A stretch of DNA of 64,000 nt from an uncultured Bdellovibrionales bacterium (GCA_964530135.1 CAZGXN010000003.1:42942-106941); one strand, 5' to 3'; positions 1 through 61,695 are shown, numbered from the stretch's first letter. The notes: generated by a model not told the origin, from the sequence alone. Numbers and translations: made by a program.

Positions 1-670
1 CTTCGAGTGAACTCTCACGGTTTCCATCGGTTTTTGGCCAAAAGGCGATCAGGCTTGATTGAGGGAGGGCGGCAATGAAATGATCCTCTTTTCCGAGATC
101 AGTAAGTTTTTCCCAATTAGATCCGTCGGGATAGGCGATATTGAGCGAGCGCTCGCCGGTGGCGGGGTCGGTGTATTGGTAGAGGATGCGGTCTCCGAGA
201 CTCGTCCAGGTGAGTCGAGACATCTCTTTCTTGAGCGGTATGAAGCTTTTATTGCGGAGATTGGCATAGTACCAGAGGTCGCCACCAGGTTCTTTCATGA
301 GGATCAGGACGCTCAGCCGGTTTGGGGACCAGACGAGGCGGGCGGGGTGACTCTCGAGGCGTCCGAGTTGCGTGATGACTTCTTTGCCATCGAGGGTAGA
401 TTCTTTGAGGATATTGTCGCGTTTGGAGTAATAAAAGAGGCTGTTTTCGCCAGCGACGGGCTGGATGACACTCTCAGTGACGACTTGCTGGAAAACGACT
501 GGACGAGTAGCGGCCTCTGTCTCAAGGGCCCGTTTCTGATCGAGTTCCTCCTTTTTTTTTGGATCAGCGACGGGGTTAGCACTATTATTTTTGAAGGCAA
601 AGTTATACACCGCCAAAAAGATGAGGACGAGAAGAAAGAACGATCCGGAAATAATGAACAGCTTTTTCAT
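1..670 (-). CDS. Partial CDS (3' end lies beyond the window start). It has an N-terminal membrane anchor followed by a TolB-like beta-propeller repeat region. It is absent from the ORF track because there is no in-window stop.
   Basis: Hand translation from the ATG at 670..668 (reverse complement of cat) gives MKKLFIISGSFFLLVLIFLAVYNF...LVWSPNRLSVLIL...YQYTDPATGERSLNIAYPDGSNWEKLTDLG with no stop down to position 1. The opposite-strand ORF 59..754 is D/E/F-rich and looks like a shadow ORF. Confidence 0.55.
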   Translation of the reverse strand, partial: MKKLFIISGSFFLLVLIFLAVYNFAFKNNSANPVADPKKKEELDQKRALETEAATRPVVFQQVVTESVIQPVAGENSLFYYSKRDNILKESTLDGKEVITQLGRLESHPARLVWSPNRLSVLILMKEPGGDLWYYANLRNKSFIPLKKEMSRLTWTSLGDRILYQYTDPATGERSLNIAYPDGSNWEKLTDLGKEDHFIAALPQSSLIAFWPKTDGNRESSLE

Positions 671-707
671 GAATGGATGTTTCCGACGGTTTCAACACCT
701 AATTTCA

Positions 708-2096
708 CTACCATTCGGCATGGATATGGTCTGCTCGAGAATCATCGCAGCTGACATATACCGTAACACGGTTGACAGTGATATCACAAAGGACATTTGT
801 CGCCCCCACCCCCGCCCCTCTGAGTGCTGATTGGACGAGTGGCCACTGAGCCTTCGGCGCATCTGGCACGATATCGACAGCCCGTCCTTGATAGTGGGCG
901 CTATTTGGGGCATGGCTACCGCCAGTAAAGCTCGTAACCATAAAAGGATAGGTCGCCGCTACAGAGAGCAGACCACTGAGCATATTCGCACTCAGTCCCG
1001 TTGTCTGGGTGCACAGGCCAGTGCCAGGGCAGCCGTTTTGGCAGCGGGTAACTGGCTGATTAGTGGCTGCCTGGGACATTGAGAGTGTTGGGCTGATAGC
1101 TCCAGCGGTACCACTACAACTTCCGCTGGACGAAAGTCTGATGCCACTGCCACTCAAGCGTATCTGCTGAGCCAACTGAGCTGGTGTTGCCCATGTTCCG
1201 GTCACACTTCCGGTCGATGTCCCAGTTCCAGTGGTCGTTCCAGCGGCGGGGGCAGGGACGGTGGCGATGCTGACGGTTGGCAGTGAGAGATTGACGAAAT
1301 CAGGGTTGATCATGTAGAGGAAGAGCCAGGCCACGAGCGCGAGAATGAGGCCGAGGATCGCGTCAAAGATGATTGTCTTGGCGCTTTCCATCCGTGAGGT
1401 GTTGCCAGCCGAAGTCAGGTACATGAAGCCGCCGATCGTCAGCATAAAGACAACGGCGATGCCAATGGCCCAAAAAGCAAAGCGATAAATATCCTGGAGA
1501 TAGGTGTTGAAATTTCCAACGGTATTATCCGAACCCGGGATTTGTTCCAGGAGCTGATAGTTTAGGTAGCCGGGACTGGTAACGGTGATTAATGAAAGGG
1601 AAGTGTCACCCGCAGAACCGGTAGGTACACAGCAGCCATCAGCATTTGTCAGGAGTGTCGTTCGGCAGAGACCAATAAAAGATTCGGTTGAATCACTACA
1701 GCCGTTAGACCAAGGGACGGCACGGGTTCTACAGACACCCCCACTTCCTCCGCTGGCGACGGAACCTTCACAGCTACTCTCGGGTATCGAACGGCTCACG
1801 ATGGGGCCAGTGGCCGTGCTCGTAATCGGTACACAACAACCCTGTGTACCGGTGTTGTAGGTATCGCCACAGACACCGACAAAGCGCTCGGTCGCATCAT
1901 TGCAACCATCGAGCTGCATAATGAGCGGTCCGCGATCACGGCAAGTCCCACCCCAACCACCGGACGTCGGTGAATTGGTACAAGCACTGCTTGATATGAC
2001 ACTGTATGTTCCACTCGGCAGTGTTCCAGCACTGACCCCCGCTGGCAGGCCCGAGAGGAAGGCGGCAACAGCAAACAACGAAAAAATTTTTTTCAT
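708..2096 (-). CDS. Secreted, membrane-associated protein. It has a signal peptide, two roughly 50-aa Cys-rich repeats, a two-helix hydrophobic hairpin with VirB2/TrbC-pilin-like topology, a Thr/Gly-rich linker, and a C-terminal peptidase M15-like zinc hydrolase domain.
   Basis: The track ORF is 462 aa. The N-terminus is MKKIFSLFAVAAFLSGLPAGVSA. The repeats are C..GG.CR....GC.D.TE.F.G.C......GCCVP, seen twice. The hairpin is FAFWAIGIAVVFMLTIGGFMYL...IIFDAILGLILALVAWLFLYMI. The C-terminus has TGGSHAPNSAHYQGRAVDI and DHIHAEW, which match the M15 S.H..G.A.D and D..H.H zinc-ligand motifs. Confidence 0.6.
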   Translation of the reverse strand: MKKIFSLFAVAAFLSGLPAGVSAGTLPSGTYSVISSSACTNSPTSGGWGGTCRDRGPLIMQLDGCNDATERFVGVCGDTYNTGTQGCCVPITSTATGPIVSRSIPESSCEGSVASGGSGGVCRTRAVPWSNGCSDSTESFIGLCRTTLLTNADGCCVPTGSAGDTSLSLITVTSPGYLNYQLLEQIPGSDNTVGNFNTYLQDIYRFAFWAIGIAVVFMLTIGGFMYLTSAGNTSRMESAKTIIFDAILGLILALVAWLFLYMINPDFVNLSLPTVSIATVPAPAAGTTTGTGTSTGSVTGTWATPAQLAQQIRLSGSGIRLSSSGSCSGTAGAISPTLSMSQAATNQPVTRCQNGCPGTGLCTQTTGLSANMLSGLLSVAATYPFMVTSFTGGSHAPNSAHYQGRAVDIVPDAPKAQWPLVQSALRGAGVGATNVLCDITVNRVTVYVSCDDSRADHIHAEW

Positions 2097-2202
2097 AGAT
2101 TTTTCTTTTCCTCCTCATTATACACTGCTTTGTGAGAAGTTAAAGAAAGGACATCATCCCTGCATCGTGCTATGCGCCCCTGGAGTTTCTTTATCGGCGG
2201 GG

Positions 2203-3267
2203 CTAGAAATCCCAACTGCCATTCATGCTAGTGGATTGGGTATAGTTGACCACGGTAGTTTCGAAGAAATTCCCCTTATCACTATTGGTATCCTGGAGTC
2301 GATCGAGGTGTTTGTAGGGATTGGTTACGGCTTCTGGATAAAGCGGGTTGATGTTGAGCATAGCGAGGCGATTATTGGCGAGCCACCGAGTATACCCCTC
2401 AGTCGTCTCTCCATTGATGCCAGGGATACGATTGCCGAGGATGTGCTTTCCCCATTCGATCTCTTGTTTTACCGCCTCAGCCATCATGTCTCGGATCAGT
2501 GTTTCGTCATAGAGGGCGGGGAATTCTCGGCGAATTTCGCGGAGGATATTGGCAAAGATAGTAACATGGGTGAGCTCATCGCGTCGGATATATGCGATCA
2601 TCCGGCCGGTTGCCAGCATTTTCATATGATCGACGAGCGTGTCAAAGAACGCAAAGCCATTGTAGAAATAGAGTGATTCGAGGAGAAAGTTAGCAACAAT
2701 CCCGCGGAAAAAAGTCGTATCGGAAGGCTGATCAACGAAATCTTGGTAGATCTGGCCGATGTATTTGTTGCGCTCGAGGAGCGTTTTGTCAGTGCGCCAG
2801 AAGTAGTAGATCTCATCGCGTTCATTGCTGTCCACCACGGATTCGAGGATGGTGGCATAGGATTGGGAATGAATTGCTTCCTGATAGGCCTGGATTGCCA
2901 AGACGAGATTGACTTCCGGTGAGGTAACATAGTCAGCAAAATGCGGGAGATTGACCGTCTGGATCGAGTCGAGAAAAATCAAGAAAGAGAGAATCCCTTT
3001 GTAGGCAGTCTGTTCCTCTGGGGTGAGATCAGCATGAAACATGCGTGCATCATCCTTCAGACCAGAGACTTTTTCTGGCACCCAAAAATTCCCGATCATC
3101 ACCTGATAGAGGGATTTGGCCCAAGGATATTTTGTAGCATTGAGATTGAAGAGCCCGGTAGTCGTCCCCTTGATGATAGTTCGGACCCCGACAGCATCAT
3201 CACCCTTTGGGTTAAACATGAGGTTGCGTCGCATTGCTTCGGTCATAGCGGTGGGATAGAGAATCAA
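2203..3267 (-). CDS. nrdB: Ribonucleotide reductase class I beta (small) subunit.
   Basis: 354 aa with ferritin-like di-iron and radical-site regions (FLIFLDSIQ, EAIHSQSYA, VANFLLESLYFYNGFAFF). It sits immediately downstream of nrdA on the same strand. Confidence 0.85.
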   Translation of the reverse strand: MILYPTAMTEAMRRNLMFNPKGDDAVGVRTIIKGTTTGLFNLNATKYPWAKSLYQVMIGNFWVPEKVSGLKDDARMFHADLTPEEQTAYKGILSFLIFLDSIQTVNLPHFADYVTSPEVNLVLAIQAYQEAIHSQSYATILESVVDSNERDEIYYFWRTDKTLLERNKYIGQIYQDFVDQPSDTTFFRGIVANFLLESLYFYNGFAFFDTLVDHMKMLATGRMIAYIRRDELTHVTIFANILREIRREFPALYDETLIRDMMAEAVKQEIEWGKHILGNRIPGINGETTEGYTRWLANNRLAMLNINPLYPEAVTNPYKHLDRLQDTNSDKGNFFETTVVNYTQSTSMNGSWDF

Positions 3268-6005: not shown

Positions 6006-6599
6006 TCAACCAGCTGTCTTGGCGGTGAAACGCTTTTCGACAGTCGCCCAATCGACGGCTCGCATGAAAGCAGTAATATAATCAGCCCGCTTCAGTCCGT
6101 AGTCGAGAACGAAGGCGTGCTCGAAAACATCCATGACGAGGAGTGGTTTGGCACCGACGAGATGTCCCCCATCATGTTCATTGACCCAGATATTGTAGAG
6201 TTTCCCTGTCGCCTCATCTCCAACGAGGATCACCCAACCGATACCGCGCATTGCACCTGTACTGACAAAGTTTTTCTCCCAGTTTTCGATGCTGCCGTAG
6301 GCGGCGATGAGCTGCTCTCTCAATGATCCATTTGCGAGTACGGAGGTATCCTTCGTCATGGCATCGAAGTAGAGCTCATGCAAGCGCATCCCGTTCCATT
6401 CCCAACCAAAGCGCCGTTTTAATTCAGCAAATTCTGGCGTAGAGAACTCGCCTTTTTCGACGAGAGCCTTCAGTCTGTCCGAGAGTGCGTTCGTATTTTT
6501 TACATACCCCTCATACAGCGTGAAATGATTGGTGAGGAGTGTGTCAGAAAATCCAGTGAGTCCGATGAGGTGCGAGTAGTTTTTTGCACTGTAGGCCAT
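6006..6599 (-). CDS. sod: Fe/Mn-family superoxide dismutase.
   Basis: 197 aa, MAYSAKNYSHLIGLTGFSDTL...FEHAFVLDYGLKRADYITAF..WATVEKRF, with the typical SodA/SodB N- and C-terminal signatures. Confidence 0.85.
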   Translation of the reverse strand: MAYSAKNYSHLIGLTGFSDTLLTNHFTLYEGYVKNTNALSDRLKALVEKGEFSTPEFAELKRRFGWEWNGMRLHELYFDAMTKDTSVLANGSLREQLIAAYGSIENWEKNFVSTGAMRGIGWVILVGDEATGKLYNIWVNEHDGGHLVGAKPLLVMDVFEHAFVLDYGLKRADYITAFMRAVDWATVEKRFTAKTAG

Positions 6600-6603
6600 A
6601 AGA

Positions 6604-7293
6604 TTAAATTTTTCCGACGAGATCGATACCGGGCTTCAGAGTTTTACCGCCCTTCTTCCAGTTTGCGGGGCAGACTTCACCGCCGTGTTCACGGACGAAA
6701 ATCGCTGCCTCGAGTTTTCGGAGGAGTTCATCTGCACTGCGACCCACATTGTTTGCATGGATCTCATAGGCCTGGAGTACACCATCTGGATCGATGATGA
6801 AGGAACCGCGGAGCGCGAGCCCGTAATCCTCGTTCTTTGGATCGGTGATGAGGACACCGAATGCGTCCGAGATGTCGCCCGATGGATCAGCGATCATCGG
6901 ATACTCGAGTGTCTTGATTGCTGGTGAATGATCATGCCAGGCCTTGTGTGTGAATTTCGTATCAGTCGAGACCGAGAGGACTTCGGCGCCAAGCTCTTGG
7001 AACTTCTTATAGTTTTTCTGCATCTCTTCGAGCTCGGTCGGACAGATGAAGGTGAAATCCGCTGGGTAGAAGAACACGACCGTCCACTTAGCACGGAAAT
7101 CCGAGAAGTGCGCCTTGTGGAAAGACTCCTTCTGATAGTAATCGAACTCGAGGTCCGGCACCTTGCTTCCGATTACCGGGAAGTATTCTGGCATGTCGGT
7201 CGCCTGATTGTCGTCGCAGCATCCGCCGCCGCAGCAGCCTTCTTGCTGGTACATAAAGTTGGAAGAAAATGAGTTAAAAGTGTTGTTGTGCAC
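6604..7293 (-). CDS. Typical 2-Cys peroxiredoxin (AhpC/Tsa family). It may carry a Cys-rich N-terminal extension (CCGGGCCDD). The canonical start could be the internal MPEYFP.
   Basis: FFYPADFTFICPTELEEM contains the peroxidatic Cys and GEVCPANWKKGG the resolving Cys. MPEYFPVIGSKVPDLEF matches canonical Prx N-termini. The 32 codons upstream of it are in frame and encode MYQQEGCCGGGCCDDNQATD. Confidence 0.85.
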   Translation of the reverse strand: MHNNTFNSFSSNFMYQQEGCCGGGCCDDNQATDMPEYFPVIGSKVPDLEFDYYQKESFHKAHFSDFRAKWTVVFFYPADFTFICPTELEEMQKNYKKFQELGAEVLSVSTDTKFTHKAWHDHSPAIKTLEYPMIADPSGDISDAFGVLITDPKNEDYGLALRGSFIIDPDGVLQAYEIHANNVGRSADELLRKLEAAIFVREHGGEVCPANWKKGGKTLKPGIDLVGKI

Positions 7294-7448
7294 CCTTGAA
7301 ATTTGAGAGATGCTTCACCATGATAGTGATGTCAAATCGGGGTGTCAACTATTGCGCAAATCCCGCCTAAAATCACCAATGCAACAGTAAAAAATAGATT
7401 AATATACTACCTATAGTATATATAAACCATTAACAAGTACAACTGGCA

Positions 7449-7477
7449 TTGACATGCTTGATGACGAATGGCATACT
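7449..7477 (+). promoter_or_regulatory. Candidate sigma70-type promoter for rluD in the AT-rich divergent intergenic region.
   Basis: TTGACA at 7449-7454, a 17-nt spacer, then CATACT at 7472-7477. This lies about 60 nt upstream of the 7537 ORF start. Confidence 0.3.
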
Positions 7478-7536
7478 GGAGCTTGGCCGAAAAGAATAAT
7501 TTCGGGGAAAAGTAATGCAGGCTATTCGGTCGCTGA

Positions 7537-8547
7537 GTGGTCGAGCCAAGAGTCAATCAGAACAGTCTTATGTCAGAAGAAAAAAACTCTATTTTTGTAA
7601 AGGAGCGGCACAATGGCTGGCGTCTGGATCGTTTTTTACTCGATGCTTGTCGGCCCCTTACGCGTCCAGATGTCCAAACCCTCATTGAGTCAGGTGCGGT
7701 TGCGATTGATGGCAAGGTGATGGTGCGTTCTGGGCTTCGAGTAAAACCAGGGATGACAGTCCATGTGAGAGGCGTCGCTCGGGGGCGTAAGCCAGTGGTG
7801 GAAAAGACAGAGATGCCTCATCCCGTAGTTGTCGCTGAAACTGAGACTTTTCTTGTGCTTTCCAAACCGGCGGGTATTGCTATGCATCCAGCTGGTCATT
7901 CGCAACAATTGACGATTTCTGATTGGATATCCACGACTTATCCACAGATCGTGGGAATTGGTGATGATATAAAACGCCCGGGCATGGTGCACCGTTTGGA
8001 TAAAGACACCTCGGGTCTCATCCTTGTTGCTAAAACGCAGAAGTCGTTTTTGGCTCTAAAGAAGCTTTTTCAAGAGAGAAAGATTGAAAAAACCTATGTG
8101 GCATTGGTCTATGGAAATATCCCTGACCCAAGTGGTCGTATGAATGCACCAATTGGTCGGGTGAAGGGTGAGAAAAAACGGGCGATTCCCGCTGGAAAGC
8201 GTATATTCGCTGGATTACTGCGTGAAGCTGTAACAGAATACATGTTACACACACGCTATACAGGCTATGATTACCTATCTGTTAAGCCAAAAACTGGCAG
8301 AACCCATCAAATCCGAGTCCATTTGTCGGCACTGGGATACCCGATAGTCGGCGATCGGCTGTATCGCTTCAAAGAACACCGCCGTGATCCCCTCAAGCCC
8401 CCCTTTCAACTTCTCCACGCCGCCAATCTTCGTTTTCAGCTAGGAAAAAAGAAGTATTCCTATGCTGCCCCGTTACCCCGTTATTTTTCCGATACTTTGA
8501 AGATGCTTGACGCCGAGGCGGGAAGAGGCTATGATTGGAGCGCTTGA
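7537..8547 (+). CDS. rluD: RluA-family 23S rRNA pseudouridine synthase with an N-terminal S4 domain (RluD-like).
   Basis: S4-like region WRLDRFLLDACRPLTRPDVQTLIESGAVAIDGKV. Catalytic motif HRLDKDTSGLILVAKT. 336 aa. Confidence 0.8.
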   Translation: MVEPRVNQNSLMSEEKNSIFVKERHNGWRLDRFLLDACRPLTRPDVQTLIESGAVAIDGKVMVRSGLRVKPGMTVHVRGVARGRKPVVEKTEMPHPVVVAETETFLVLSKPAGIAMHPAGHSQQLTISDWISTTYPQIVGIGDDIKRPGMVHRLDKDTSGLILVAKTQKSFLALKKLFQERKIEKTYVALVYGNIPDPSGRMNAPIGRVKGEKKRAIPAGKRIFAGLLREAVTEYMLHTRYTGYDYLSVKPKTGRTHQIRVHLSALGYPIVGDRLYRFKEHRRDPLKPPFQLLHAANLRFQLGKKKYSYAAPLPRYFSDTLKMLDAEAGRGYDWSA

Positions 8548-8661
8548 GTAGCCTGCCTGATACGCTTCATGCGAGTCATGTGGGTGGGGCCTTTCTCTGA
8601 AATGGGGTCCCCTTTTTATTACTATAGTAATCTTCCGTCCATTCGGCAGAGTCACACTCCT

Positions 8662-9126
8662 ATGAATCAAAAACTTGTTGCCTTCAATCAGAATCTCCGA
8701 ACAGCGCGTACAGATCTCCCTCAGCTCCAAGCTGGCGATGTCGTGAAAGTGCGCCGAAAAATCAAGGAGGGAGAGAAAATTCGAACCCAGATGTTTCAGG
8801 GTATGGTCATCGCTCTCAAGGGCGGCCAGAGCTCTTCTCAGATGGTAACAGTTCGCAAGGTCTCTTCAGGGATTGGTGTTGAGATTATTTTCCCTCTCCT
8901 CTCCTCTCAGGTGGAGTCAATCGAGCTCGTAAAACGAACCAAGGCTCGGCGTGGTAAACTATACTTTGTCCGTACGAAGTCAGCCAAAGTTATTGGTAAA
9001 AAGCTTAAGGAGGTCCCATTTGAGATCGGGAAAGCGGGTAAGGAAGTAAAAGATGTTGTGAAAGAAGTGAGAGCAGCCGCTCAAGCGAGTGCTGAAGAGG
9101 TGAAGGTTGAAGCGAAGTCAGAGTAG
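8662..9126 (+). CDS. rplS: Ribosomal protein L19 with a Lys/Glu-rich C-terminal extension. The track ORF starts at 8569, but the likely true ATG is at 8662.
   Basis: MNQKLVAFNQNLRTARTDLPQLQAGDVVKVRRKIKEGEKIRTQMFQGMVIALKGG...IELVKRTKARRGKLYF is the canonical L19 fold. A roughly 60-aa K/E/A-rich tail follows. Confidence 0.85.
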   Translation: MNQKLVAFNQNLRTARTDLPQLQAGDVVKVRRKIKEGEKIRTQMFQGMVIALKGGQSSSQMVTVRKVSSGIGVEIIFPLLSSQVESIELVKRTKARRGKLYFVRTKSAKVIGKKLKEVPFEIGKAGKEVKDVVKEVRAAAQASAEEVKVEAKSE

Positions 9127-21052: not shown

Positions 21053-22012
21053 CTATGCTATATGCCAGCCGTCAGCTGACTCGATGATTTTTCCGTTGAC
21101 CTCAAATCCACTTGCGAGTTTGTGCCCTCCCCCGCCGAGCATATGGGCGATAGCCGAAACATCGACACCGTGATGTTCTGAGGCGCGAAGGCTCCCCCGA
21201 ACGGTTTTTTCATCACGTTCAGAAAGGACGAGAGCAAATTTTGCTTCCGGAACTGTCGAAAGGATAGAGGCAACTTGATAGATGTCATCGGGTGTCGCTT
21301 CGCACTCGTCGATATCAGATCGAGTAACGGCCGTAACGAGAAGCCCAGATTGTGGAACAAACTTTGCCTTTTCAAACGCCTTCCCCCAAAGCTTCATGGC
21401 AGAAATATTTTTATTTGTAAAAATTGTGTTTGATATTTTTGTCAGTGGCGCACCGAGTTTCATCAGGCGTGAAGCGATATCCATCACCTGGGGTGAAACC
21501 GATGAATGCTGGAAATTTCCCGTGTCAAAAAGTATTCCAGTGAGCAGAGCAGTGGCCATGTCCCTCGTTATATGCGCCTGGGTGTGTATGAAAAAAAGAT
21601 ATACTAATTCGCTTGATGAAGAATATTTTGGATCAATAATCACGATATCGGCAGACAGATTGATATCAGGATGATGATCTATGAGGGCGATAACCTGATG
21701 TTCTGCAAAGCGATCACGGAAAAGATGGAATCCGCGATCAACCGAATCGACAGCGATGATGGCATCATAGTGTGTGAGATCGAGCTGATCAGGATGTAAA
21801 AATTCAGCATGAAAGAGGACATTCAAACTTTCAGGAAACGGATCATAGCAAGCGATCACCACCTCTTTCCCCTGTTCTTCAAGAAAGTACTTCAGCGCAA
21901 GGTTTGCCCCGACCGTATCGGGATCAGGGCGTTTATGTGCGACAAGCAAGATGGATGTTGCTTGACTGATAACAAAATGAAGGGTTTTAAACTCTTTTCC
22001 GAAATAACGCAT
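21053..22012 (-). CDS. DHH/DHHA1 phosphoesterase (NrnA-like oligoribonuclease/pAp phosphatase). The track ORF extends to 22069 and overlaps rbfA; the internal start MRYFGKE is likelier.
   Basis: DHH-family motifs (VAHKRPDPDTVGANLAL, IDHH) and the DHHA1 GGGGH motif. Confidence 0.7.
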   Translation of the reverse strand: MRYFGKEFKTLHFVISQATSILLVAHKRPDPDTVGANLALKYFLEEQGKEVVIACYDPFPESLNVLFHAEFLHPDQLDLTHYDAIIAVDSVDRGFHLFRDRFAEHQVIALIDHHPDINLSADIVIIDPKYSSSSELVYLFFIHTQAHITRDMATALLTGILFDTGNFQHSSVSPQVMDIASRLMKLGAPLTKISNTIFTNKNISAMKLWGKAFEKAKFVPQSGLLVTAVTRSDIDECEATPDDIYQVASILSTVPEAKFALVLSERDEKTVRGSLRASEHHGVDVSAIAHMLGGGGHKLASGFEVNGKIIESADGWHIA

Positions 22013-22022
22013 ACAGTTTCGT

Positions 22023-25825: not shown

Positions 25826-25829
25826 AGTT

Positions 25830-52773: not shown

Positions 52774-54117
52774 TTGATTCTGCCGTATGCTACAGCTTGT
52801 AACTCTTGGGGGAAATCCCGGATGTGCCGCTCTCATTCAGATACTCGAGCGGGGCTAGGGGATTATCCTAACAGAAAGGGTGGACCTATTTTTTCACACT
52901 TGATATCTCGGGCCCGGCGTTCCTGGCGGAGCGTACGACAGCTGGTTGATTTTGCCCGTTGGAATACGGTTTTTCACCAGGGACAGACCCGATTTCTTGT
53001 CTGGTTCAAGGAAGGTTCCGGCTATATTCCGGTCATTCTTTTTCGTAAATATTCAACCTTTTCGCTCGTAGTTTCTTCGGCCCTCCTGGTCTCAGCGACC
53101 AATTACGGTCAAGAAGTCGGTGGTCTCGAGCGTCTCTCGGCCTCGCTCAATGTCAATCTGCCCAGTGAGAATCGCGTTGTGTTGCGCCGTGCGGCCCAAG
53201 AATCCCAGCAACATAATCTCTCACTTGTTTCATTGGCGGCGCCCTTGCTCGCGGCTGATATGTCCGTTCAGACGGAAACCAATGTTCTGGATGAGGCTTA
53301 TTTGTCGCCTGAAAATCAGATGTTTATCGCTCAGGCGGTAGGTGCCAATAGCGCTCGTGATCCTGAAGAAGATGGGGGCGTGAAAATCTACACCGTAGCA
53401 GCCGGTGATACGGTATCTGGCATCGCTGCGGTCCATGGGGTAACGGTCAATACGATTCTCTGGGCAAATGATCTCGACAATGTTGATTCGATCAGGCCGG
53501 GTGATCAGATCTTTATTTTGCCGGTTGCTGGATTCAACTATACAGTCAAAAGCGAAGATACAATTGACTCTATCGCTGCCAAGTATAAAGCGGACCGAAG
53601 CCGCATCATTGCCTATAATGGACTACCGGCTAATGGTGATCTGACGGCTGGAACAGAGCTTATTATCCCTGACGGAGTAAAAGAGAGCGCTCCAGCGGCA
53701 CCCGTAACCACAGGGTTGGCGCGACGCGAGTATGCATCACAGACAGGGAGTGGGGTCGCGACAGATATCACTCCGAGTTTTGCGCGGCCGCGTGAAGGGA
53801 AGATTGGGCAAGGGCATCGTTTTCCATATGGTTATTGCACCTGGTATGTCGCTCAGAAGCGATATGTCCCGTGGGGTGGCAATGCGGGTACCTGGCTCTA
53901 TAATGCGCGTGCCCAGGGCTACAAAACTGGAAAAACACCGACGGTGGGTTCAATTGTTGTAACGACTGAGAATCGGTTTTATGGGCATGTCGCACTGGTT
54001 GAGAAGGTGAGTGGCGATATGATCACAGTGTCTGAAATGAACTATACTGGCTGGGCAAAAAAAAGCGTGCGTCAATTATCTCGCTCGAGTCGGGTGATCA
54101 AGGGGTATATTTACTAG
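52774..54117 (+). CDS. Membrane-anchored peptidoglycan hydrolase with two LysM domains and a C-terminal CHAP amidase/peptidase domain. It is the likely VirB1-like lytic enzyme of the adjacent T4SS. The true start is probably internal.
   Basis: LysM 1 is YTVAAGDTVSGIAAVHGVTVNTILWANDL...GDQIFILP. LysM 2 is YTVKSEDTIDSIAAKYKADRSRIIAYNGL...GTELIIP. The CHAP domain is GYCTWYVAQKR...GHVALVEKV. Confidence 0.7.
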   Translation: MILPYATACNSWGKSRMCRSHSDTRAGLGDYPNRKGGPIFSHLISRARRSWRSVRQLVDFARWNTVFHQGQTRFLVWFKEGSGYIPVILFRKYSTFSLVVSSALLVSATNYGQEVGGLERLSASLNVNLPSENRVVLRRAAQESQQHNLSLVSLAAPLLAADMSVQTETNVLDEAYLSPENQMFIAQAVGANSARDPEEDGGVKIYTVAAGDTVSGIAAVHGVTVNTILWANDLDNVDSIRPGDQIFILPVAGFNYTVKSEDTIDSIAAKYKADRSRIIAYNGLPANGDLTAGTELIIPDGVKESAPAAPVTTGLARREYASQTGSGVATDITPSFARPREGKIGQGHRFPYGYCTWYVAQKRYVPWGGNAGTWLYNARAQGYKTGKTPTVGSIVVTTENRFYGHVALVEKVSGDMITVSEMNYTGWAKKSVRQLSRSSRVIKGYIY

Positions 54118-54322
54118 CTGATTTGTGGGAAAGGGTGGAGCGAAGACGGTTACAAGAATGAGTGGGGAGGATGGTGAGGCAAGAAAAGCAGCGGGTTTCA
54201 ATGCCTCTCCTTGAGTTTCAGCGCTTGATCCCCGCCACTCTCTTCTTTGTGTGTCCCAATCCTGTGGGCTTGTGGTATACTATTTTTGTATCCGATGTCG
54301 TCGTCTGTATCGCTGCGTACTT

Positions 54323-56338
54323 ATGCGTTGGGTGAAACAAAATACAAAAAAAATTCTCATTGGTTTTTTTGCGTGTGCACTCATTGTTCAGAGTGGTGCT
54401 GTTGCGGTCCAGCCAGTCTTTGCTACTGCCCCGACAGTTGGCAGTCAGATCGAAACCAGTGCTCAAGCGGCTGGCAATCCAAACTCCCCTCCGACCGGCA
54501 ATGAGATAGAGGGAGGTTGTTCCTGGTATAATTGGCTTGCCTGTGGTAAAGACCTTATCGTCTGGTTTTTGAAAGAGATCCGCGATCTTATCTATCGCGG
54601 TTTTGCTGTTCCGGCCGCGGCGGGATTTGCCTGGGCGCTGAATCCGGCCAATATCTCTGGACCGACTGGAGTGTTGAATCTCTCGGCAGTCTATACTCTC
54701 TGGCAGTTTATCCGAGATTTCTTCAATCTCTTTTTCATTCTCATCCTCCTTTTTTCGGCTTTTGCGACAGTTTTCCAGGTGGATAGTTTCAATATCCGCA
54801 ATATCTTCAAAAATGTCCTCTTGGTCGCACTGCTCATCAATTTCAGCTTTCCAATTACTCGATTTCTCATTGATGCGGCCAATGTGCCGATGTACTACTT
54901 CATCAATGATGTGATCGGTGATGGCACGGGGAATGGTGGTATGATCGCCATGAATAACATGCTCCGACACTCGGGTGCCGGCGCGGGCGCCATGGTTACT
55001 ACCGGAGACAACAGCAGTGTCGTCCAGATTCTCTTGTCGATTATTTTCGTTTTTTTATTTGGTATCTCGCTCCTGGTGTTGGCGGTGATGATGATTATCC
55101 GTCTCCTCGCGCTCACATTATTGCTGATCTTTTCACCGATTGGCTTTGCCTCGGCGCTGCTCCCGGGACTCAATGAATATGGCCAACGATGGTGGAGCAA
55201 CTTTTGGAACTATGCACTGTTTGGACCGGCGGCCGCGCTCATGCTCGTAGTGTCATTGAAGTTTCTCGAGGCGAGCGGATCACTCTTTACCTCGATGCAG
55301 CAGGTATCGACCAATGTCAGTGTCGACCCGAGCGGAGCTACTTCGGTGGCTCAGGTCATTTTCTTCACGATCCCGATTATCCTCATCTGGTTTACTATCG
55401 GCCTGGCGAGCAGGTTCAGTGTGGCTGGTGCCGCGACCGTCGTCGGCCTCGGCTATGGCGCCGCACATTGGACGCGGAAGAAGCTACAGAAAGGTGTGGG
55501 ATTTGTCGGCAAGAAGGTCGTCGTTAATCCTGTTACCAGGGGAGTGGGGAGCGGTATCGCCCAACGTTTCAATGACAACAAGATAGTGAAGTATGTAAAA
55601 TCTCCAGGCAAGGTTGAGGCGCGGATCAGAGGGGCTGTTGGTACTGGTACCGTCAGTGGAGAATTGGGTAAACTCCATGAGCAGCAGGTAAGGAGAGAGC
55701 TGGATGAATTGAAGAAGAACAAGGCGAGTTATTCTGAGGCTCGGGCGGGAATGACAAGTGGGAATCAGGCATCACGTCAGGCAAACGCAATGTATCTTGC
55801 TCAGAATGATGATATCCGAAACGCAAGTGATTTTAGAGATGGACTCGCTGCTATGGCGGGCAATGCAGAATTTACCAGTGAATTTGTTAAAAAATCTCAA
55901 GGAGCGATTGATAATGTTACGGACTTGGCGACAGCTCTCAATGCCCTGGGCACTGACAGCAAGACTGCCGCAGCAGTTATCGATAAGATAAATCCAGGCG
56001 CCCTCCCTGCGAATTCAGCTGACTATGCGTCAATCCTTGCAGCCCCAGCCTTTACTTCCCCAGCTTCACAGAAGCAACTTCAGAGTAAGATGAAGAAAGA
56101 GGGTCGGATAAGTTCAGTGATAGATCATGAGGTTAGGACGACAGGCGCGAGTATGGCTTCGGTGGTTGATCGCCATTTGGATAGCATGACAGTCGAAGAG
56201 ATAGCAAAACAAGATAGCTTACTTCGGAGCAATCCTGATGCGCACGGCTATGTACTCGGTCTAAGGACGAGTGACCCAGCAAAGTATCAAGAGATTAAAA
56301 ATAAGATGAAATCGGGTACAAGTGCATTGTTTCCGTGA
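54323..56338 (+). CDS. VirB6/TrbL-like polytopic inner-membrane T4SS channel protein with a hydrophilic C-terminal extension. The track ORF starts at 54251 with GTG; the ATG at 54323 gives a signal or TM start.
   Basis: MRWVKQNTKKILIGFFACALIV followed by at least 7 TM helices in a VirB6-like arrangement, then about 250 aa hydrophilic. It lies in an operon with the VirB4 gene. Confidence 0.55.
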   Translation: MRWVKQNTKKILIGFFACALIVQSGAVAVQPVFATAPTVGSQIETSAQAAGNPNSPPTGNEIEGGCSWYNWLACGKDLIVWFLKEIRDLIYRGFAVPAAAGFAWALNPANISGPTGVLNLSAVYTLWQFIRDFFNLFFILILLFSAFATVFQVDSFNIRNIFKNVLLVALLINFSFPITRFLIDAANVPMYYFINDVIGDGTGNGGMIAMNNMLRHSGAGAGAMVTTGDNSSVVQILLSIIFVFLFGISLLVLAVMMIIRLLALTLLLIFSPIGFASALLPGLNEYGQRWWSNFWNYALFGPAAALMLVVSLKFLEASGSLFTSMQQVSTNVSVDPSGATSVAQVIFFTIPIILIWFTIGLASRFSVAGAATVVGLGYGAAHWTRKKLQKGVGFVGKKVVVNPVTRGVGSGIAQRFNDNKIVKYVKSPGKVEARIRGAVGTGTVSGELGKLHEQQVRRELDELKKNKASYSEARAGMTSGNQASRQANAMYLAQNDDIRNASDFRDGLAAMAGNAEFTSEFVKKSQGAIDNVTDLATALNALGTDSKTAAAVIDKINPGALPANSADYASILAAPAFTSPASQKQLQSKMKKEGRISSVIDHEVRTTGASMASVVDRHLDSMTVEEIAKQDSLLRSNPDAHGYVLGLRTSDPAKYQEIKNKMKSGTSALFP

Positions 56339-56358
56339 TCCTTTAACATTGAATTGGT

Positions 56359-57510
56359 GTGAGTGGAGATACTGTAAAAAACATCCTTTTCTTTCCAATG
56401 CTTGTCTCTGAAAGTGGGACAGGTGAGGCTATGACGCCAGAAGTTTCGGAAGAATTATGGATGAAACTTCGAAATCTATCTCCTAATAAGCGAGACATTC
56501 TTGTCTGTCGAGAATTGCCCCAGAAGCTCCTGATTCTCAAGGAGAAGTTAAATTTGGATGAAAAAGCTATAGGCCGTATCAGTTTGGTGATTCGGAAGAT
56601 TTTTTTTAACGAACTTGATCTTGCTGGTGCTGAGGCTAAGATTGCTTCGATGCTTGGGGCGGGTGGAGCAGAGAATCCGAACCATGCTAAGGCTATTGTT
56701 GAGTTTATTAAAAAAGAAATACTAACCATTAAGCCAGTAAAAGAAGTCGTGCCAGATGAATCTTTGTCAAGTGAGCCAGTTATCAAAACCGCGCGGCTGC
56801 CGCTCCTCAAGGCGATGAGTGAGTACCCGCATTTGTCAGAACAACTCTTGACCAGAGAAAAGATCAAATTGAAATCATCGACGGAACCGGTGCGACCATC
56901 GCTTGGGAATTGGCTGAAGAGCTATCGTGAAGAGCTCGGTATCGGGTTCCATGAGCCAGTCAAGCGGGGAAATTTTCTCTTTCAATCCCAGAATGGCAAG
57001 CGTCTGTCCAATGAGGAGCGAGCGAGATTCAATCTCATCTTGAAGTCGGTCGAAGAGGAATTTCCGCTTGACATCGATACGGAACGCCAGGCAATAGTCT
57101 TTCCATCGTCTGGCGATGTGGCGATGGAGCTGACTCAGATCCGAACCAATCCATCCCAGCCTACTCCAAACAGGATGATTCGAGCACGGGGTCTGTCGAC
57201 CAGTCTACCGGCCTCTGAAACTACACCAGAAACATCTTCACCAACCGCCTTTCAGTCCTTCAAACCACTGTTTGCGAAATCAGTATCGCCGGAGAAGAAT
57301 GTTTCAGGTGAGACATTACATTTCTCTACAGGGCATGTGTTGCCAGCGGAACGCGAGGCGGGCGCTCCAACATCCGATGGGAGCGAGGCACTCCGTCAGA
57401 TGCAGCATCCGACGCAGGGTATTCGGCGTGAACCCAATCCAGCGCTTTCTCGGAGTCCGTACTCGATCCGTCCGCTCCGTCCTCGGAGTGGGGACAATGA
57501 AAACGCCTAG
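56359..57510 (+). CDS. Hypothetical soluble protein inside the T4SS-like operon, with a Pro/Ser/Thr-rich C-terminus.
   Basis: 383 aa. It starts 20 nt after the VirB6-like stop. No motif was recognised. Confidence 0.5.
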   Translation: MSGDTVKNILFFPMLVSESGTGEAMTPEVSEELWMKLRNLSPNKRDILVCRELPQKLLILKEKLNLDEKAIGRISLVIRKIFFNELDLAGAEAKIASMLGAGGAENPNHAKAIVEFIKKEILTIKPVKEVVPDESLSSEPVIKTARLPLLKAMSEYPHLSEQLLTREKIKLKSSTEPVRPSLGNWLKSYREELGIGFHEPVKRGNFLFQSQNGKRLSNEERARFNLILKSVEEEFPLDIDTERQAIVFPSSGDVAMELTQIRTNPSQPTPNRMIRARGLSTSLPASETTPETSSPTAFQSFKPLFAKSVSPEKNVSGETLHFSTGHVLPAEREAGAPTSDGSEALRQMQHPTQGIRREPNPALSRSPYSIRPLRPRSGDNENA

Positions 57511-57603
57511 CATTTTCTTCAACATGATATACTGCACAGTGTAGGTTGGATTTTTGTTTGTCGGAAAGATGAAACGAGGAAATAGTTTGAAACAAAAACC
57601 GTT

Positions 57604-57999
57604 ATGATGTTCAGCGTCCCCCAGTTTATTGATGTTGAAGACAAAATTGCTGGCCCACTCACTTGGCGTCAGTTGTTGTGGATGATCGGGATGGGGATTC
57701 TTCTCCTCGTCATATACAATACTATCGGTACAGCTGGTTTTTTGATTGTGGCGGTCCCGATTGTCTTACTGTTTTGTGCCCTAGCCTTTTATCGGCCACA
57801 GGGTCAACCGCTCATTGTGTTTCTCTTCCATGGATTTACCTATTTCTTCCGGCCGAAAATTGCTGTCTGGGAGCGCCCAATAGCCCGCCGCCAGGCAGCT
57901 CCTGAGGTTGAAGCTGCTCCCGTGAAAGCAGCGGCGAAAGCCAAACAGCTTTCACCAGAAGCTCTCCGCGATTTGGCTCGGCTCATGGACACCCACTAG
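57604..57999 (+). CDS. PrgI/VirB3-like small two-TM T4SS protein.
   Basis: 131 aa. MMFSVPQFIDVEDKIAGPLTWRQLLWM is followed by two TM helices and a basic tail. It sits immediately upstream of VirB4, as VirB3/PrgI does. Confidence 0.5.
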   Translation: MMFSVPQFIDVEDKIAGPLTWRQLLWMIGMGILLLVIYNTIGTAGFLIVAVPIVLLFCALAFYRPQGQPLIVFLFHGFTYFFRPKIAVWERPIARRQAAPEVEAAPVKAAAKAKQLSPEALRDLARLMDTH

Positions 58000-58008
58000 T
58001 TTTCATGT

Positions 58009-58683
58009 ATGGAATTTCTCTCTAAGAAAAAATCTGGCAGTTTGAGTACACAGCGATATGTCGATGTCGAAGAGCTGCGTGATGGCGTTCTCGTTCTCAA
58101 AACCGGAGCGCTGCGGGCGGTACTCCTTGTCTCATCGATTAATTTTGATCTGAAATCGAGCGAAGAACAGGATGCGATTATTTCTCAGTATCAGAATTTC
58201 CTCAATTCACTGGATTTTCCCATTCAAATTGTCGTGCAGTCTCGCCGGTTCAATATCGATCCGTATATCGAACTCCTCCGTGGGAAAGAGGCACAGCAGG
58301 CCAATGAGCTCCTTCGATTCCAGATGAAAGAGTACCAAAGCTTTATCAGGAACCTGACGGATGTTTCGAATATTATGTCGAAGTATTTTTATGTTGTTGT
58401 ACCATTTTCACCAGTTGAAAATGTCGAGACGGGATTTTTCGGAAAAATGGGAGACATTTTCAATCAGCGGAAAACCGTCGGCCTCAAAAATGAATTGTTT
58501 GATACCTACCGAACACAGATCATGCAGCGCGTCGAACATATTGTCGCGGGTCTTTCTCCGATGGGAATCCGCGCAACAGCCCTGGGCACCGAAGAATTGA
58601 TCGAGCTCCTCTACAATAGTTATAATCCATCACTCTTTGCATCAACGATCGTGAAAAATGTCGAGGCGATTGAGCTCCAGTAA
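58009..58683 (+). CDS. VirB4-family N-terminal domain encoded as a separate ORF (the N-terminal piece of a split VirB4).
   Basis: 224 aa. VDVEELRDGVLVLKTGALRAVLLVSSINFDLKSSEEQDAIISQYQNFLNSL resembles the N-terminus of Gram-positive VirB4 proteins (TraE/PrgJ). It ends with TAA at 58681-58683. Confidence 0.55.
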   Translation: MEFLSKKKSGSLSTQRYVDVEELRDGVLVLKTGALRAVLLVSSINFDLKSSEEQDAIISQYQNFLNSLDFPIQIVVQSRRFNIDPYIELLRGKEAQQANELLRFQMKEYQSFIRNLTDVSNIMSKYFYVVVPFSPVENVETGFFGKMGDIFNQRKTVGLKNELFDTYRTQIMQRVEHIVAGLSPMGIRATALGTEELIELLYNSYNPSLFASTIVKNVEAIELQ

Positions 58684-58687
58684 ACTT

Positions 58688-60919
58688 ATGGGACGAGAAC
58701 TGATTATTTTTGACCGGCCAATCAAGAAAGTATCCGTGGTTGATCCGATGAATATCGCGACCCCTGGTCTTGGTGAGCTTTCTGTACCGCCTCGCTCACG
58801 TGGCCAAGCGGGAGCCGCCCTGCCATCCGCGCGTGCCACAAATGCCGATGGAGTCCGGCCACCCCAGCCAGATGATACTGTGCTGCCGACCGACATCCAC
58901 TCAGAGAAAGTGGCATCAGCTCCAGCGAGTCCAGTTTCGCGTCGAGCGCCAGAGCCACGCGAGACAGTCTCAGCTCCTGATCGAGGAGGAAGGCTTGCCC
59001 CACCAGAAAAGAATCGCGCCGTCTGGGCAGAGGAGGTTGTGGCCCAGGCTTTTCCAGTTGATAATCCATCGACTATCAAGTCGGAGAAAAAGAGTTTTCT
59101 TGGGAGTCTTTTTGGAAAAAAATCCCAGACCCCAGTTTTGGATACAAATCGGGAAACAGAACAGCTCTATCAGAAGGGTCTGGCAACGATCCGTGATCTC
59201 ATTGCTCCGCCAGCGATTCGAGTGAGTCCAGCGACCATGCAGATCGGCGATGTCGTCGCTCGGACACTGTTCATCATCGCGTACCCGCGGTTTCTTTCGA
59301 CCAATTGGTTTTCTCCGATTATCAATATCGACTTTCCGATGGATACGGCGCTGTTCATTCATCCGATAGATACAGCTGAAATCCTGAAACAACTCCGTAA
59401 ATCCGCGACCCAGGTGCAATCACAGATGAATATCGAAATTGAGGAGGGGAAGATCCGCGACCCAGTACTTGAGGCGGCGCTTCAAAATATTGAAGAATTG
59501 CGTGATCGTCTCCAGCAAGGGACAGAAAAGTTCTTTCGCTTTGGTCTCTATATGACGCTCTATGGGGCAGATGAGAAAGATCTCTCCCAAAAAGTGCAGT
59601 CGATTGAAGCGATTCTTGAGGCGCAGCTCGTGTATACCAAACCCGCTGTCTTGCGAATGGATGTTGGGTTTGCGTCGACTCGACCGCTGGCCAATGATGC
59701 ACTGGATGTGGCCAATAACCTCAACACTGAGCCGCTTTCGACTACTTTCCCCTTTGTCTCTTCAGATCTCTCCTCCAATGAGGGTATCCTGTATGGCATC
59801 AACCGGCATAACAATTCGCTTATTCTGTTTGATCGGTTCAAGATGGAAAATGCCAATATGGTGGTCTTTGCAAAGTCTGGTGCGGGTAAGAGCTATACGG
59901 TAAAACTTGAAGTTTTGCGGGCGCTCATGCTCGATACAAGCGTTATTATTATTGATCCAGAAAATGAATATAAGCATCTCTGTGAGACGGTCGGTGGAGC
60001 CTTTCTGAAAATTTCTCTCAACTCGGATATTCATCTCAATCCGTTTGATATGCCGAAAGTCGGTGCGGAAGAAGAGTCAGATGGCGTTTTCCGAAACACT
60101 ATTGCCAATCTCATCGGACTTCTCCACCTCATGCTCGGGACTTTATCAGCCGAAGAAGATTCGATCTTGGACCAGGCTATCCGTGAGGCGTATGCGATTC
60201 GTGATATTCACGAAGATTCAAATTTCGGCGCATTGCTTCCGAATTCCTTTCCAACAATGTCTGATCTGCATGCAGTCCTGAAGAATATGGAGGGTGCGGA
60301 TTCGATTGCTGCTCGACTGCGACGCTATACAGAGGGTATTTTCTCGGGTTTTCTGAATGAGCAGACGAATATCGATACGGATAACCAGCTTGTTGTCTTC
60401 AATATTCGAGATCTGGAAGAGGAACTCCGTCCGATTGCGATGTATATCATCCTTCAGTACATCTGGAATGATATTCGCTCAAAGCTTCGCCAACGCATCA
60501 TCGTCGTCGATGAGGCCTGGATCATGATGCAAAATGAGGATGCAGCCTCGTTCCTATTTGGCATCGCCAAGCGCTGCCGCAAGTACTACACTGGTCTTAC
60601 GACGATCACTCAGGACATCAGCGACTTTATGTCTTCGCGCTACGGCAAGCCGATTATCACCAACTCTTCGATGCAGCTGCTCCTCCGTCAATCACCCGCA
60701 TCGATTGACTATATCACCGAGACTTTTTACTTGACGGATCATGAGAAGTTTCTTCTGCTCGAGTCGAATGTGGGGGAAGGAATTTTCTTTGCCGGGACAA
60801 AACACGCCGCTATAAAAGTCATTGCTTCATATAGTGAAGATCAGATTATCACTTCGGACCCGCGTCAGCTTCTCGAAATTGAAGAAGCGAAGCGCGACTT
60901 CGATTCCAACAACCCTTAA
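58688..60919 (+). CDS. VirB4/TrbE/CagE-family T4SS ATPase (central and C-terminal ATPase domains) with a roughly 130-aa Pro/Ala/Ser/Arg-rich low-complexity N-terminal segment. The track ORF starts at 58658; the ATG at 58688 lies 4 nt after the upstream stop.
   Basis: Walker A is FAKSGAGKSYTVK. Walker B is RIIVVDEAWIMM. The middle region QIGDVVARTLFIIAYPRFLSTNWFSPIIN is VirB4-like. The reading frame differs from that of 58009..58683. Confidence 0.8.
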   Translation: MGRELIIFDRPIKKVSVVDPMNIATPGLGELSVPPRSRGQAGAALPSARATNADGVRPPQPDDTVLPTDIHSEKVASAPASPVSRRAPEPRETVSAPDRGGRLAPPEKNRAVWAEEVVAQAFPVDNPSTIKSEKKSFLGSLFGKKSQTPVLDTNRETEQLYQKGLATIRDLIAPPAIRVSPATMQIGDVVARTLFIIAYPRFLSTNWFSPIINIDFPMDTALFIHPIDTAEILKQLRKSATQVQSQMNIEIEEGKIRDPVLEAALQNIEELRDRLQQGTEKFFRFGLYMTLYGADEKDLSQKVQSIEAILEAQLVYTKPAVLRMDVGFASTRPLANDALDVANNLNTEPLSTTFPFVSSDLSSNEGILYGINRHNNSLILFDRFKMENANMVVFAKSGAGKSYTVKLEVLRALMLDTSVIIIDPENEYKHLCETVGGAFLKISLNSDIHLNPFDMPKVGAEEESDGVFRNTIANLIGLLHLMLGTLSAEEDSILDQAIREAYAIRDIHEDSNFGALLPNSFPTMSDLHAVLKNMEGADSIAARLRRYTEGIFSGFLNEQTNIDTDNQLVVFNIRDLEEELRPIAMYIILQYIWNDIRSKLRQRIIVVDEAWIMMQNEDAASFLFGIAKRCRKYYTGLTTITQDISDFMSSRYGKPIITNSSMQLLLRQSPASIDYITETFYLTDHEKFLLLESNVGEGIFFAGTKHAAIKVIASYSEDQIITSDPRQLLEIEEAKRDFDSNNP

Positions 60920-60924
60920 ACGCT

Positions 60925-61695
60925 ATGGCCGAGGATATTGATTCGGCGTTTGAACAGCTCCACCAGAGCAAATGGATGCAACTTCGGAACGCTACTCGTC
61001 TGGCTTTTGAACACCGGAAGAGAGTGGCGGCTGGTGATTTGTCGGTCTTCATTCTGCCATTAGCTCTGGCCATGGCTAAAGACGGACTTTTGGACTTCAT
61101 TCCGTTTATCGGGTTATTTTTCGGGCTTTTTATCACTACATACCTCTTTATTTTCATGTGGGGTCGGGGTCGGTGGATACTGCGCATCCTCTTCTTCTTT
61201 GTGGCTACTGTCGGTAATCTTCCTTTCATCAAACTCTTGCCTTTTGATACGATCAGCGTTCTCTTCGCTTATTTCTTGGCACGCAAAGATGTGGCAAAGG
61301 CCAAAGAGAAATTGGAGAAAGTTAATCAGGTGATACCGCGGCTGGCGGATGATCTCCGCGGTGTGGCGCGCCAGCGTGCGCGGGCCCAAGAGGCGGCCCA
61401 AGAGGCAGAGGCATCCGCTGCCCAAAGCGCTGCCCAGATGGATACAGCATCTCGCTCGCCTGAACGGTTAGTGGGAGCTGCTCCAGTACTCGCTGTCCCT
61501 CGGGGACAGGTAATACCTTCTCGTTCGGACCAGGCGACTGCGCTTCGTCATAGTCAAAGCGCGGTTAACGAAGCTACCTTGAGAATACAAGCTGCGGGAC
61601 GTCAATTGGCTCAGAGTTCTCTGGCGTATACAGCGGGTATGCGCCAGTCTGGAGCACCAAGAGGGGTTTCGGAAAAGCGGCAACGAGCGGTTTAA
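60925..61695 (+). CDS. Membrane protein in the T4SS-like operon (3 to 4 TM) with an Ala/Gln-rich coiled-coil C-terminus.
   Basis: 256 aa. It starts 6 nt after the VirB4 stop. TM helices are LSVFILPLALAMA, IPFIGLFFGLFITTYLFIFMW and ILFFFVATVGNLPFI. Confidence 0.5.
   Translation: MAEDIDSAFEQLHQSKWMQLRNATRLAFEHRKRVAAGDLSVFILPLALAMAKDGLLDFIPFIGLFFGLFITTYLFIFMWGRGRWILRILFFFVATVGNLPFIKLLPFDTISVLFAYFLARKDVAKAKEKLEKVNQVIPRLADDLRGVARQRARAQEAAQEAEASAAQSAAQMDTASRSPERLVGAAPVLAVPRGQVIPSRSDQATALRHSQSAVNEATLRIQAAGRQLAQSSLAYTAGMRQSGAPRGVSEKRQRAV

Follow-up and report, generated by a model that had tools for sequence, protein, structure and literature searches.

Modular type IV pilins (T4P), such as those of Streptococcus sanguinis, consist of a conserved polymerising pilin core onto which a bulky functional module is grafted. 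No VirB2 pilin is known to carry an enzyme domain, and none was found in the literature searched for such proteins. VirB2-like pilins and pilin arrays have been described in Patescibacteria, as have VirB1-like hydrolases with extra domains. In published work, the VirB2-like pilins that Patescibacteria possess are equated with proteins of the family PF18895 (PMC12102498; PMC12857230). VirB2-like pilins are widespread and are essential in one Saccharibacterium (PMC12102498, PMC10633639), and in Saccharibacteria both the type IV secretion system (T4SS) and the pilins are essential for epibiotic growth, the relaxase and coupling protein (T4CP) being usually absent (PMC10633639, PMC12102498).

The gene described in this study, which belongs to an ultra-small bacterium (Patescibacteria/Moranbacteria), lies near one end of a 64-kb window, the whole stretch of DNA that was analysed, and joins a pilin hairpin of this kind to a predicted peptidase. 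Its product is best explained, with a probability of about 0.6, as a modular pilin of the VirB2-like kind that bears a peptidoglycan peptidase exposed at the cell surface. The parts are of known kinds; as far as could be found, the fusion is not described in the literature searched. That search returned no pilin-hydrolase fusion and had incomplete coverage, so its result amounts to an absence of evidence.

Architecture of the gene and its product

The open reading frame occupies positions 708-2096 of the minus strand, exactly as a previous reading of the sequence alone (the sequence-only reading) had placed it, and comprises an ATG start and 462 codons plus a stop, encoding 462 amino acids, with GGAGG ~13 nt 5' of the ATG. 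A promoter and terminator scan of window positions 500-2400 found none. The features are listed below by window coordinates and strand.

708..2096, minus: whole gene, modular VirB2-like pilin/LAS peptidase fusion (ORF list, 64 homologues, AlphaFold mean pLDDT 80)
2028..2096, minus: predicted Sec-type signal peptide, residues 1-23 (MKKIFSLFAVAAFLSGLPAGVSA, then G), read from the sequence by hydropathy and an A-x-A-like site
1821..2009, minus: Cys-rich repeat 1, residues 30-92, Cys 39, 52, 65, 76, 87 and 88 (pLDDT 77-94, beta-rich in the AlphaFold model)
1617..1799, minus: Cys-rich repeat 2, residues 100-160, Cys 109, 122, 133, 144, 155 and 156 (47% identical to repeat 1)
1521..1616, minus: disordered linker and Y-x-L-L-E-x-I-P-G motif, residues 180-188 (Y180, E184, P187 and G188 >=90% conserved)
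1287..1520, minus: VirB2-like pilin hairpin, residues 193-270: TM1, loop SAGNTSRMESAK, TM2, then INPDFV
1197..1286, minus: Pro/Thr/Gly-rich flexible linker, residues 271-300 (AlphaFold pLDDT 35-37)
711..1196, minus: C-terminal LAS (Hedgehog/DD-peptidase-fold) zinc peptidase domain, residues 301-462, six Cys, predicted peptidase
873..896, minus: H401-x6-D408 zinc-ligand motif (HYQGRAVD), invariant in 25 sequences, aligned to H141/D148 of Sonic hedgehog (Shh)
720..728, minus: H457-I-H459, H-x-H motif, predicted catalytic His and third zinc ligand, invariant in 25 sequences
1..670, minus: co-oriented downstream gene, cut by the window edge, orthologue of a ~378-aa TM and propeller-like protein
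52774..61695, plus: T4SS-like cluster of monoderm type (LysM+CHAP hydrolase, VirB6-like, PrgI/VirB3, VirB4-like ATPase)

The predicted signal peptide is hydrophobic over residues 3-23 and ends in VSA, followed by G. The 18 cysteines of the protein form three groups of six. Two of these groups lie in the tandem repeats, which are 47% identical (about residues 30-92 and 100-160; BLASTP E 4e-19), have almost equal cysteine spacing and each close with a CC-x-P motif (G-C-C-V-P). The sequence-only reading had described two tetra-Cys repeats; the tandem repeats are real, but each holds six cysteines, not four. Local BLAST detected hexa-Cys repeats in seven homologues, and the module of repeat 1 occurs in the homologues P0017, P0054, P0058 and P0047. 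In P0054 and P0058, the hexa-Cys repeats are followed by two tandem pilin hairpins in one polypeptide. A word-index search of a large protein database, which is of limited sensitivity, returned no match to the repeats, and among PDB sequences the sole match was cyanovirin-N at an insignificant E of 0.25; the fold of the repeats is therefore left unclassified. In short members of the family the Y-x-L-L-E-x-I-P-G motif comes directly after the signal-peptide A-x-A site and forms the mature N-terminus, whereas in the 462-aa protein it is internal (residues 180-188) and C-terminal to the disordered linker. By this difference, the Cys-rich repeats are an insertion between signal peptide and pilin core.

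Hydropathy places two hydrophobic stretches at residues 203-231 and 236-268 with the polar turn SAGNTSRMESAK between them, and AlphaFold predicts helices at 196-228 and 233-263; by these two measures the protein has the signal peptide and the two-TM hairpin with a short polar loop that are found in PF18895. The hairpin is a member of this family (T4SS_pilin): residues 193-262 score 32.6 bits against a gathering threshold of 26.6, and the isolated hairpin segment scores 36.1 bits. All of the 18 diverse homologue hairpins surveyed also matched PF18895 (best E 1.6e-12); three of them matched TrbC/VirB2 PF04956 (best E 1.6e-5) and one matched CagC, in each case below threshold. The 462-aa query gave no match to PF04956 at E<=1, and its distant relative P0061 scored 20.7 bits against that model, below the GA of 27.9. 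NCBIfam yielded only a sub-threshold match, to a mycoplasma ICE pilin-like family, and a search of PDB sequences with the hairpin profile found no solved VirB2/TraA pilin, only chance matches (RNase kappa, E 0.24). The T4SS-pilin-like hairpin proposed earlier is thus borne out through PF18895, but not through a TrbC/VirB2 match of the query itself, and the sequence matches support kinship with classical VirB2 at family level only.

The Thr/Gly linker that had also been noted is present at residues 271-300, with a pLDDT <40. A match to 3-ketoacyl-CoA thiolase (E 0.018) was attributed to the composition of the Ser/Gly-rich part of the protein and discarded.

The C-terminal domain, a predicted peptidase

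The C-terminal domain (160 aa; AlphaFold pLDDT 94) has, as modelled, the characteristic fold and motifs of the LAS, or Hedgehog/DD-peptidase, clan (MEROPS clan MD, which includes M15). The motifs SAHYQGRAVD (399-408) and DHIH (456-459), both picked out in the sequence-only reading, are present, and the zinc-site residues are invariant in an alignment of the domain from 25 homologues, in which G393, H395, S399, H401, Y402, G404, D408, H457 and H459 do not vary. The combination of H-x6-D and H-x-H is the published Hh/DD-peptidase signature (PMC6027127). A profile of the 25 domain sequences matched the Sonic hedgehog N-domain with an E of 1e-5, over the zinc-site half only, placing GGsHsatSaHYsGRAVDI opposite DGHHSEESLHYEGRAVDI; the matches of the single sequence to the Hedgehog N-domain were weak. 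The pairing of H457-I-H459 with Shh H181-I-H183 was made by eye, on the order and spacing of the motifs, and is not given by the HMMER alignment. Read from the sequence in the register of the profile alignment, the Ca2+-binding residues E127, D130 and D132 of Shh are replaced by V387, F390 and G392.

The AlphaFold model of the domain matches the Shh N-domain, the Streptomyces Zn DD-peptidase, the phage T5 L-Ala-D-Glu peptidase, MepA and VanX. The fold comparison gave the following values.

Shh N-domain: 8.5
Streptomyces albus G Zn DD-peptidase (1lbu): 7.0
Phage T5 L-Ala-D-Glu peptidase: 6.2
MepA: 5.9
VldE C-terminal domain: 5.7
LysB4: 5.6
VanX: 5.5
Ply500: 5.4

None of the Pfam M15 models (PF01427, PF02557, PF05951, PF08291 and PF13539) matched the query at E<=1, and the Hedgehog N-domain model PF01085 gave 13.9-15.3 bits, below its threshold of 22.1. 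Sub-threshold matches among the 25 relatives were to HH_signal (7/25), Peptidase_M15_3 (5/25; best E 4e-4) and Peptidase_M15_4 (5/25). The M15 peptidase of the sequence-only reading therefore holds at clan level, by LAS fold and invariant zinc motifs, and not at the level of a Pfam M15 model, none of which reaches threshold. Given scores below every Pfam threshold of the clan and the replacement of the Shh Ca2+ residues, the domain represents an unclassified branch of the LAS/MD peptidases, nearest to the Hedgehog/M15A corner and outside every named family. A relative without a pilin hairpin, P0064, carries two PG_binding_1 domains N-terminal to the same peptidase domain; the M15A enzyme likewise has PG_binding ahead of its peptidase domain, and this arrangement supports a peptidoglycan substrate. 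No close relative of the domain was found in the IMG/VR collection of viral contigs.

Both the hairpin helices and the LAS-type C-terminal fold are seen in the AlphaFold model. The proposal of a pilin-like or cell-wall-remodelling protein is supported overall, pilin similarity and the M15 motifs both having been recovered.

Fusion family, genomic slot and module exchange

In a database clustered at 90% identity, 64 homologues were found, mostly in MAGs of Candidatus Moraniibacteriota/Moranbacteria and often annotated as 'pilin'; about 30 of the 64 have the hairpin and C-terminal domain in common and differ in their N-terminal regions. When the C-terminal domain was used by itself in an exhaustive search with HMMER, 242 representative clusters (50% identity) were recovered. 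These two sets rule out chance as the origin of the ORF architecture. Among the best 150 of the 242 clusters, the hairpin is N-terminal to the peptidase in 115, in invariable order, and the other 35 are fragments, lipoproteins or PG_binding fusions. The median hairpin start in the 115 is residue 46, so that the typical member is a protein of ~300 aa with signal peptide, hairpin and peptidase. Judged from these sequences, the fusion architecture is widespread in Patescibacteria. The sister proteins P0052/P0053 have an SLT lytic transglycosylase domain C-terminal to the same hairpin, and the gene for P0061, itself a fusion of pilin and Hh-like peptidase, stands first among five PF18895 pilin genes in tandem. 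This array lies at L004:10001-14868 in a distant CPR genome (GCA_030698885.1).

On the same strand, ahpC, sodA and nrdA-nrdB precede the pilin-peptidase gene, and a gap of 37 nt separates it from the downstream gene. The ~378-aa protein has an N-terminal TM helix and beta-propeller-like repeats, with no Pfam match. In Moraniibacteriota its gene always follows the pilin-peptidase gene immediately and in the same orientation, and the propeller-like protein may be a functional partner. Eight related loci keep the same order (L19, RluD / AhpC, SOD, NrdA, NrdB, pilin fusion, propeller protein), followed by Wzy, GT2, flippase, Jag and YidC in those that reach further; dnaA is reached in L001 and L002 only and RnpA in L002 only. 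None of the eight syntenic loci has virB4 or other T4SS genes beside the gene, the neighbours being nrdAB instead.

A VKOR gene found near the locus in relatives was sought in the 64-kb window and is not there. Window positions 22000-26000 form a low-GC stretch (0.36-0.39 vs ~0.48-0.50 elsewhere) with a strong GC-skew spike, in which lie the genes for a Wzy_C-like membrane protein (22814-24205) and for a protein with bacterial TSP3 repeats (24782-25825); it may be a horizontally acquired surface-polysaccharide/adhesin island. Elsewhere in the window, further cell-wall enzymes are represented by a gene at 10848-11846 (plus) with a weak Peptidase_M23 match (24.2 bits, below the cut-off) and one at 45653-46600 (plus) for a protein with G5, DUF348 and DPBB_1 domains (RlpA/YabE-like lytic transglycosylase).

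Within the slot after nrdB, the hairpin core is ~80-85% identical across loci, a level comparable with that of NrdB, and at least four classes of C-terminal module occur there.

Class A, Hh/DD-like: the window, L001, L002, L005 and L006
Class B, GGTETGH..HGxGxxxVD..HFH: L007 (gene at 6253-7839)
Class C, CHTNGTCAD..SFHV: L009 (gene at 7758-9038)
Class D, HHRxGDYAIDL..HWH: L008 (gene at 7401-8825)

Classes B and D prove homologous to class A in hhalign, with their zinc motifs in register (93.5% probability, E 2e-7). For class C the hhalign probability is 6.8% and a local HMM gave E 9e-5; its homology to class A is weakly supported and is treated here as motif-level only. Syntenic loci vary, too, in how many N-terminal Cys-rich modules they encode and of what type. 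A chassis that is kept while the ectodomains are exchanged is what would be expected of a surface protein that faces a variable target.

The T4SS-like cluster of the window encodes a VirB6-like protein of 695 aa, unknown proteins of 383 and 224 aa and a 256-aa TM protein, and its virB4-like gene (58658-60919) is about 50-56 kb from the pilin-peptidase gene. No pilin gene and no adjacent relaxase or coupling protein were detected for the cluster (52774-61695), and a hairpin HMM run over the 64-kb window found one copy only, the gene at 708..2096. A partnership with this T4SS, as suggested previously, is plausible, but the link is only circumstantial in view of the ~50 kb between them and the synteny with nrdAB. 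Directly upstream of the cluster is a tyrosine recombinase (Phage_integrase with a SAM-like N-domain; 51694-52653, minus), which could be XerC/D or the remnant of an integrative element.

Possible function and relation to known systems

From VirB2 biology and the sequence we infer that the protein would be exported by Sec and its signal peptide cleaved, leaving two helices in the cytoplasmic membrane in an N-out/C-out topology. The short basic loop SAGNTSRMESAK would face the cytoplasm, which would put the N- and C-terminal modules both outside the cell. The hexa-Cys repeat pair, presumably disulfide-rich, would likely be a binding or spacer module; CPR bacteria are enriched in MdbA/VKOR-type oxidoreductases (PMC6744442). 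Carried on the flexible Thr/Gly linker and provided with the full H-x6-D ... H-x-H set, the putative zinc metallopeptidase would most likely act on peptidoglycan, cleaving a peptide bond of the stem peptides or of the cross-links. The conserved hairpin would thus anchor exchangeable enzyme or binding modules at the cell surface and, if the VirB4 machinery extracts it as it does VirB2, the modules would be shown on a T4SS pilus.

The reading as a peptidase-bearing modular pilin is supported by the PF18895 score above the gathering threshold, with family-wide PF18895 and sub-threshold TrbC/CagC matches, and by the match of the C-terminal profile to Shh-N (E 1e-5) together with the invariant H395, H401, D408, H457 and H459. 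It gains further from the company that the modules keep: PG_binding_1 with the peptidase domain in P0064, SLT in the sister fusions, an upstream hairpin in 115 of the best 150 clusters, a distant member heading a five-pilin array, and at least four module classes in one slot. The pilin-less T4SS-like cluster in the same window and the essential pilins of a Saccharibacterium (PMC12102498, PMC10633639) are in keeping with it as well. Against it stand a gene without T4SS neighbours whose synteny in eight genomes is with housekeeping nrdAB, sodA and ahpC, a hairpin profile that retrieves no solved VirB2/TraA pilin, a query with no PF04956 match, and the lack of a Pfam M15 model at threshold. With ectodomains of ~140 and ~160 aa on each subunit, assembly into a filament of the VirB2 type would also be sterically difficult.

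Whose wall would be cut separates two narrower explanations. It is possible, though rather improbable, that the hairpin is an unpolymerised anchor and the LAS peptidase a housekeeping autolysin, which would trim or open the cell's own peptidoglycan as the cell grows, divides or assembles its envelope, together with the propeller-like protein. Anchor-only action on the own wall is favoured by the housekeeping synteny, to which can be added the co-oriented TM/propeller gene downstream, the nearby Wzy/GT2/flippase envelope genes (near dnaA in L001 and L002) and the single copy in the 64-kb window, not adjacent to virB4. An enzyme for the cell's own, invariant wall, however, would not be expected to swap at least four catalytic classes and its N-terminal module while its anchor is kept at 80-85%, nor does this explanation account readily for an anchor that is specifically a PF18895 pilin, with a distant member in a pilin array. 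An enzyme-armed T4SS pilus, in which the protein would be a minor or tip pilin assembled by the VirB4 machine and the peptidase and Cys-rich adhesin would break through the wall of the host bacterium, or remodel it, at the point of attachment, seems unlikely; the large ectodomains pose a steric problem and the T4SS genes lie elsewhere. Its appeal is that the exchange of modules while the hairpin is kept is a pattern typical of proteins that interact with a host, that the T4SS cluster lacks a pilin gene and has a LysM-CHAP hydrolase for the own wall, and that epibiotic Saccharibacteria need T4SS and pilins for growth, usually with neither relaxase nor T4CP (PMC10633639, PMC12102498). Display on a T4SS pilus against the host wall is favoured by the swapping, the pilin-less cluster and the separate LysM-CHAP protein that already serves the T4SS; the first and last of these tilt the balance toward a foreign or host wall.

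Very unlikely, by comparison, is a ligand or adhesin without hydrolytic activity, whose zinc site would bind an envelope or matrix glycan or peptide in the manner argued for Hedgehog. The Hedgehog N-domain is the closest match in both sequence and structure, and its own peptidase activity is debated (PMC6027127). All of the LAS catalytic residues, including H395 and the first His of H-x-H, are nevertheless invariant in 25 diverse sequences, which makes a purely non-catalytic role unlikely; furthermore, the Hedgehog Ca2+ site is absent and close fold neighbours are active peptidoglycan peptidases.

As a tentative extension, in our view doubtful at present, Patescibacteria may possess armed conjugative-type pili, in which a VirB2-like chassis carries wall-degrading modules (several LAS-peptidase classes, SLT) and Cys-rich binding modules, all swapped by recombination, and the T4SS displays the enzymes on a filament to open the host wall. 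If true, such armed pili would make up a class of pilin with a new function and would provide epibionts with a means of reaching host resources. VirB2-like pilins and T4SS are essential for epibiotic life in the sole genetically tractable Patescibacterium, and a large, conserved family that joins pilin hairpin covalently to hydrolase gives the testable hypothesis that T4SS and pilins serve to act on a cell wall. The enzyme module is exchanged at one locus, where the hairpin is kept. The family also adds a Hedgehog-like, unclassified branch of LAS peptidases outside current Pfam models, and 'pilin' annotations hide multi-domain enzymes.

With the PF18895 pilins of Patescibacteria, including the Saccharibacteria arrays, the protein shares a signal peptide, a two-TM hairpin and the GG-F-x-Y-x-T-S-x-G turn; it scores above the HMM threshold, its distribution at phylum level is the same, and a T4SS is encoded in its genome window. 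Typical members have ~100-130 aa and are often encoded beside virB4 or in arrays, whereas this one has 462 aa and two large ectodomains, and its gene is in synteny with nrdAB, ~50 kb away from virB4. To the TrbC/VirB2 conjugative pilins (PF04956; T-pilus, F-pilus TraA, archaeal CedA1-type pilin 8dfu) the 462-aa protein shows no significant sequence match. With the VirB1-type hydrolases (SLT/CHAP; for example TraG of pIP501 and PrgK of pCF10) it would share a wall hydrolase tied to a monoderm-type T4SS, the tie being a proposed one here, and its sister proteins join the same hairpin to an SLT domain; it differs in its LAS rather than SLT/CHAP fold, its position outside the T4SS cluster and its covalent linkage to a pilin, and the cluster in the window already has a LysM-CHAP protein besides. 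Among LAS peptidases, the Shh N-domain, 1lbu (MEROPS M15A), the phage T5 L-Ala-D-Glu peptidase (M15C), MepA (M74) and VanX (M15D) serve for comparison. The domain is set apart from them by sub-threshold scores for all Pfam families of the clan, an N-terminal subdomain of its own with conserved cysteines, and the fusion to a pilin hairpin; it differs from Hedgehog in lacking the Ca2+-binding acidic residues. With the modular T4P pilins, finally, it shares the concept of a conserved pilin core with a grafted module, although the pilin fold is unrelated and the assembly machine there is that of T4P, not a T4SS.
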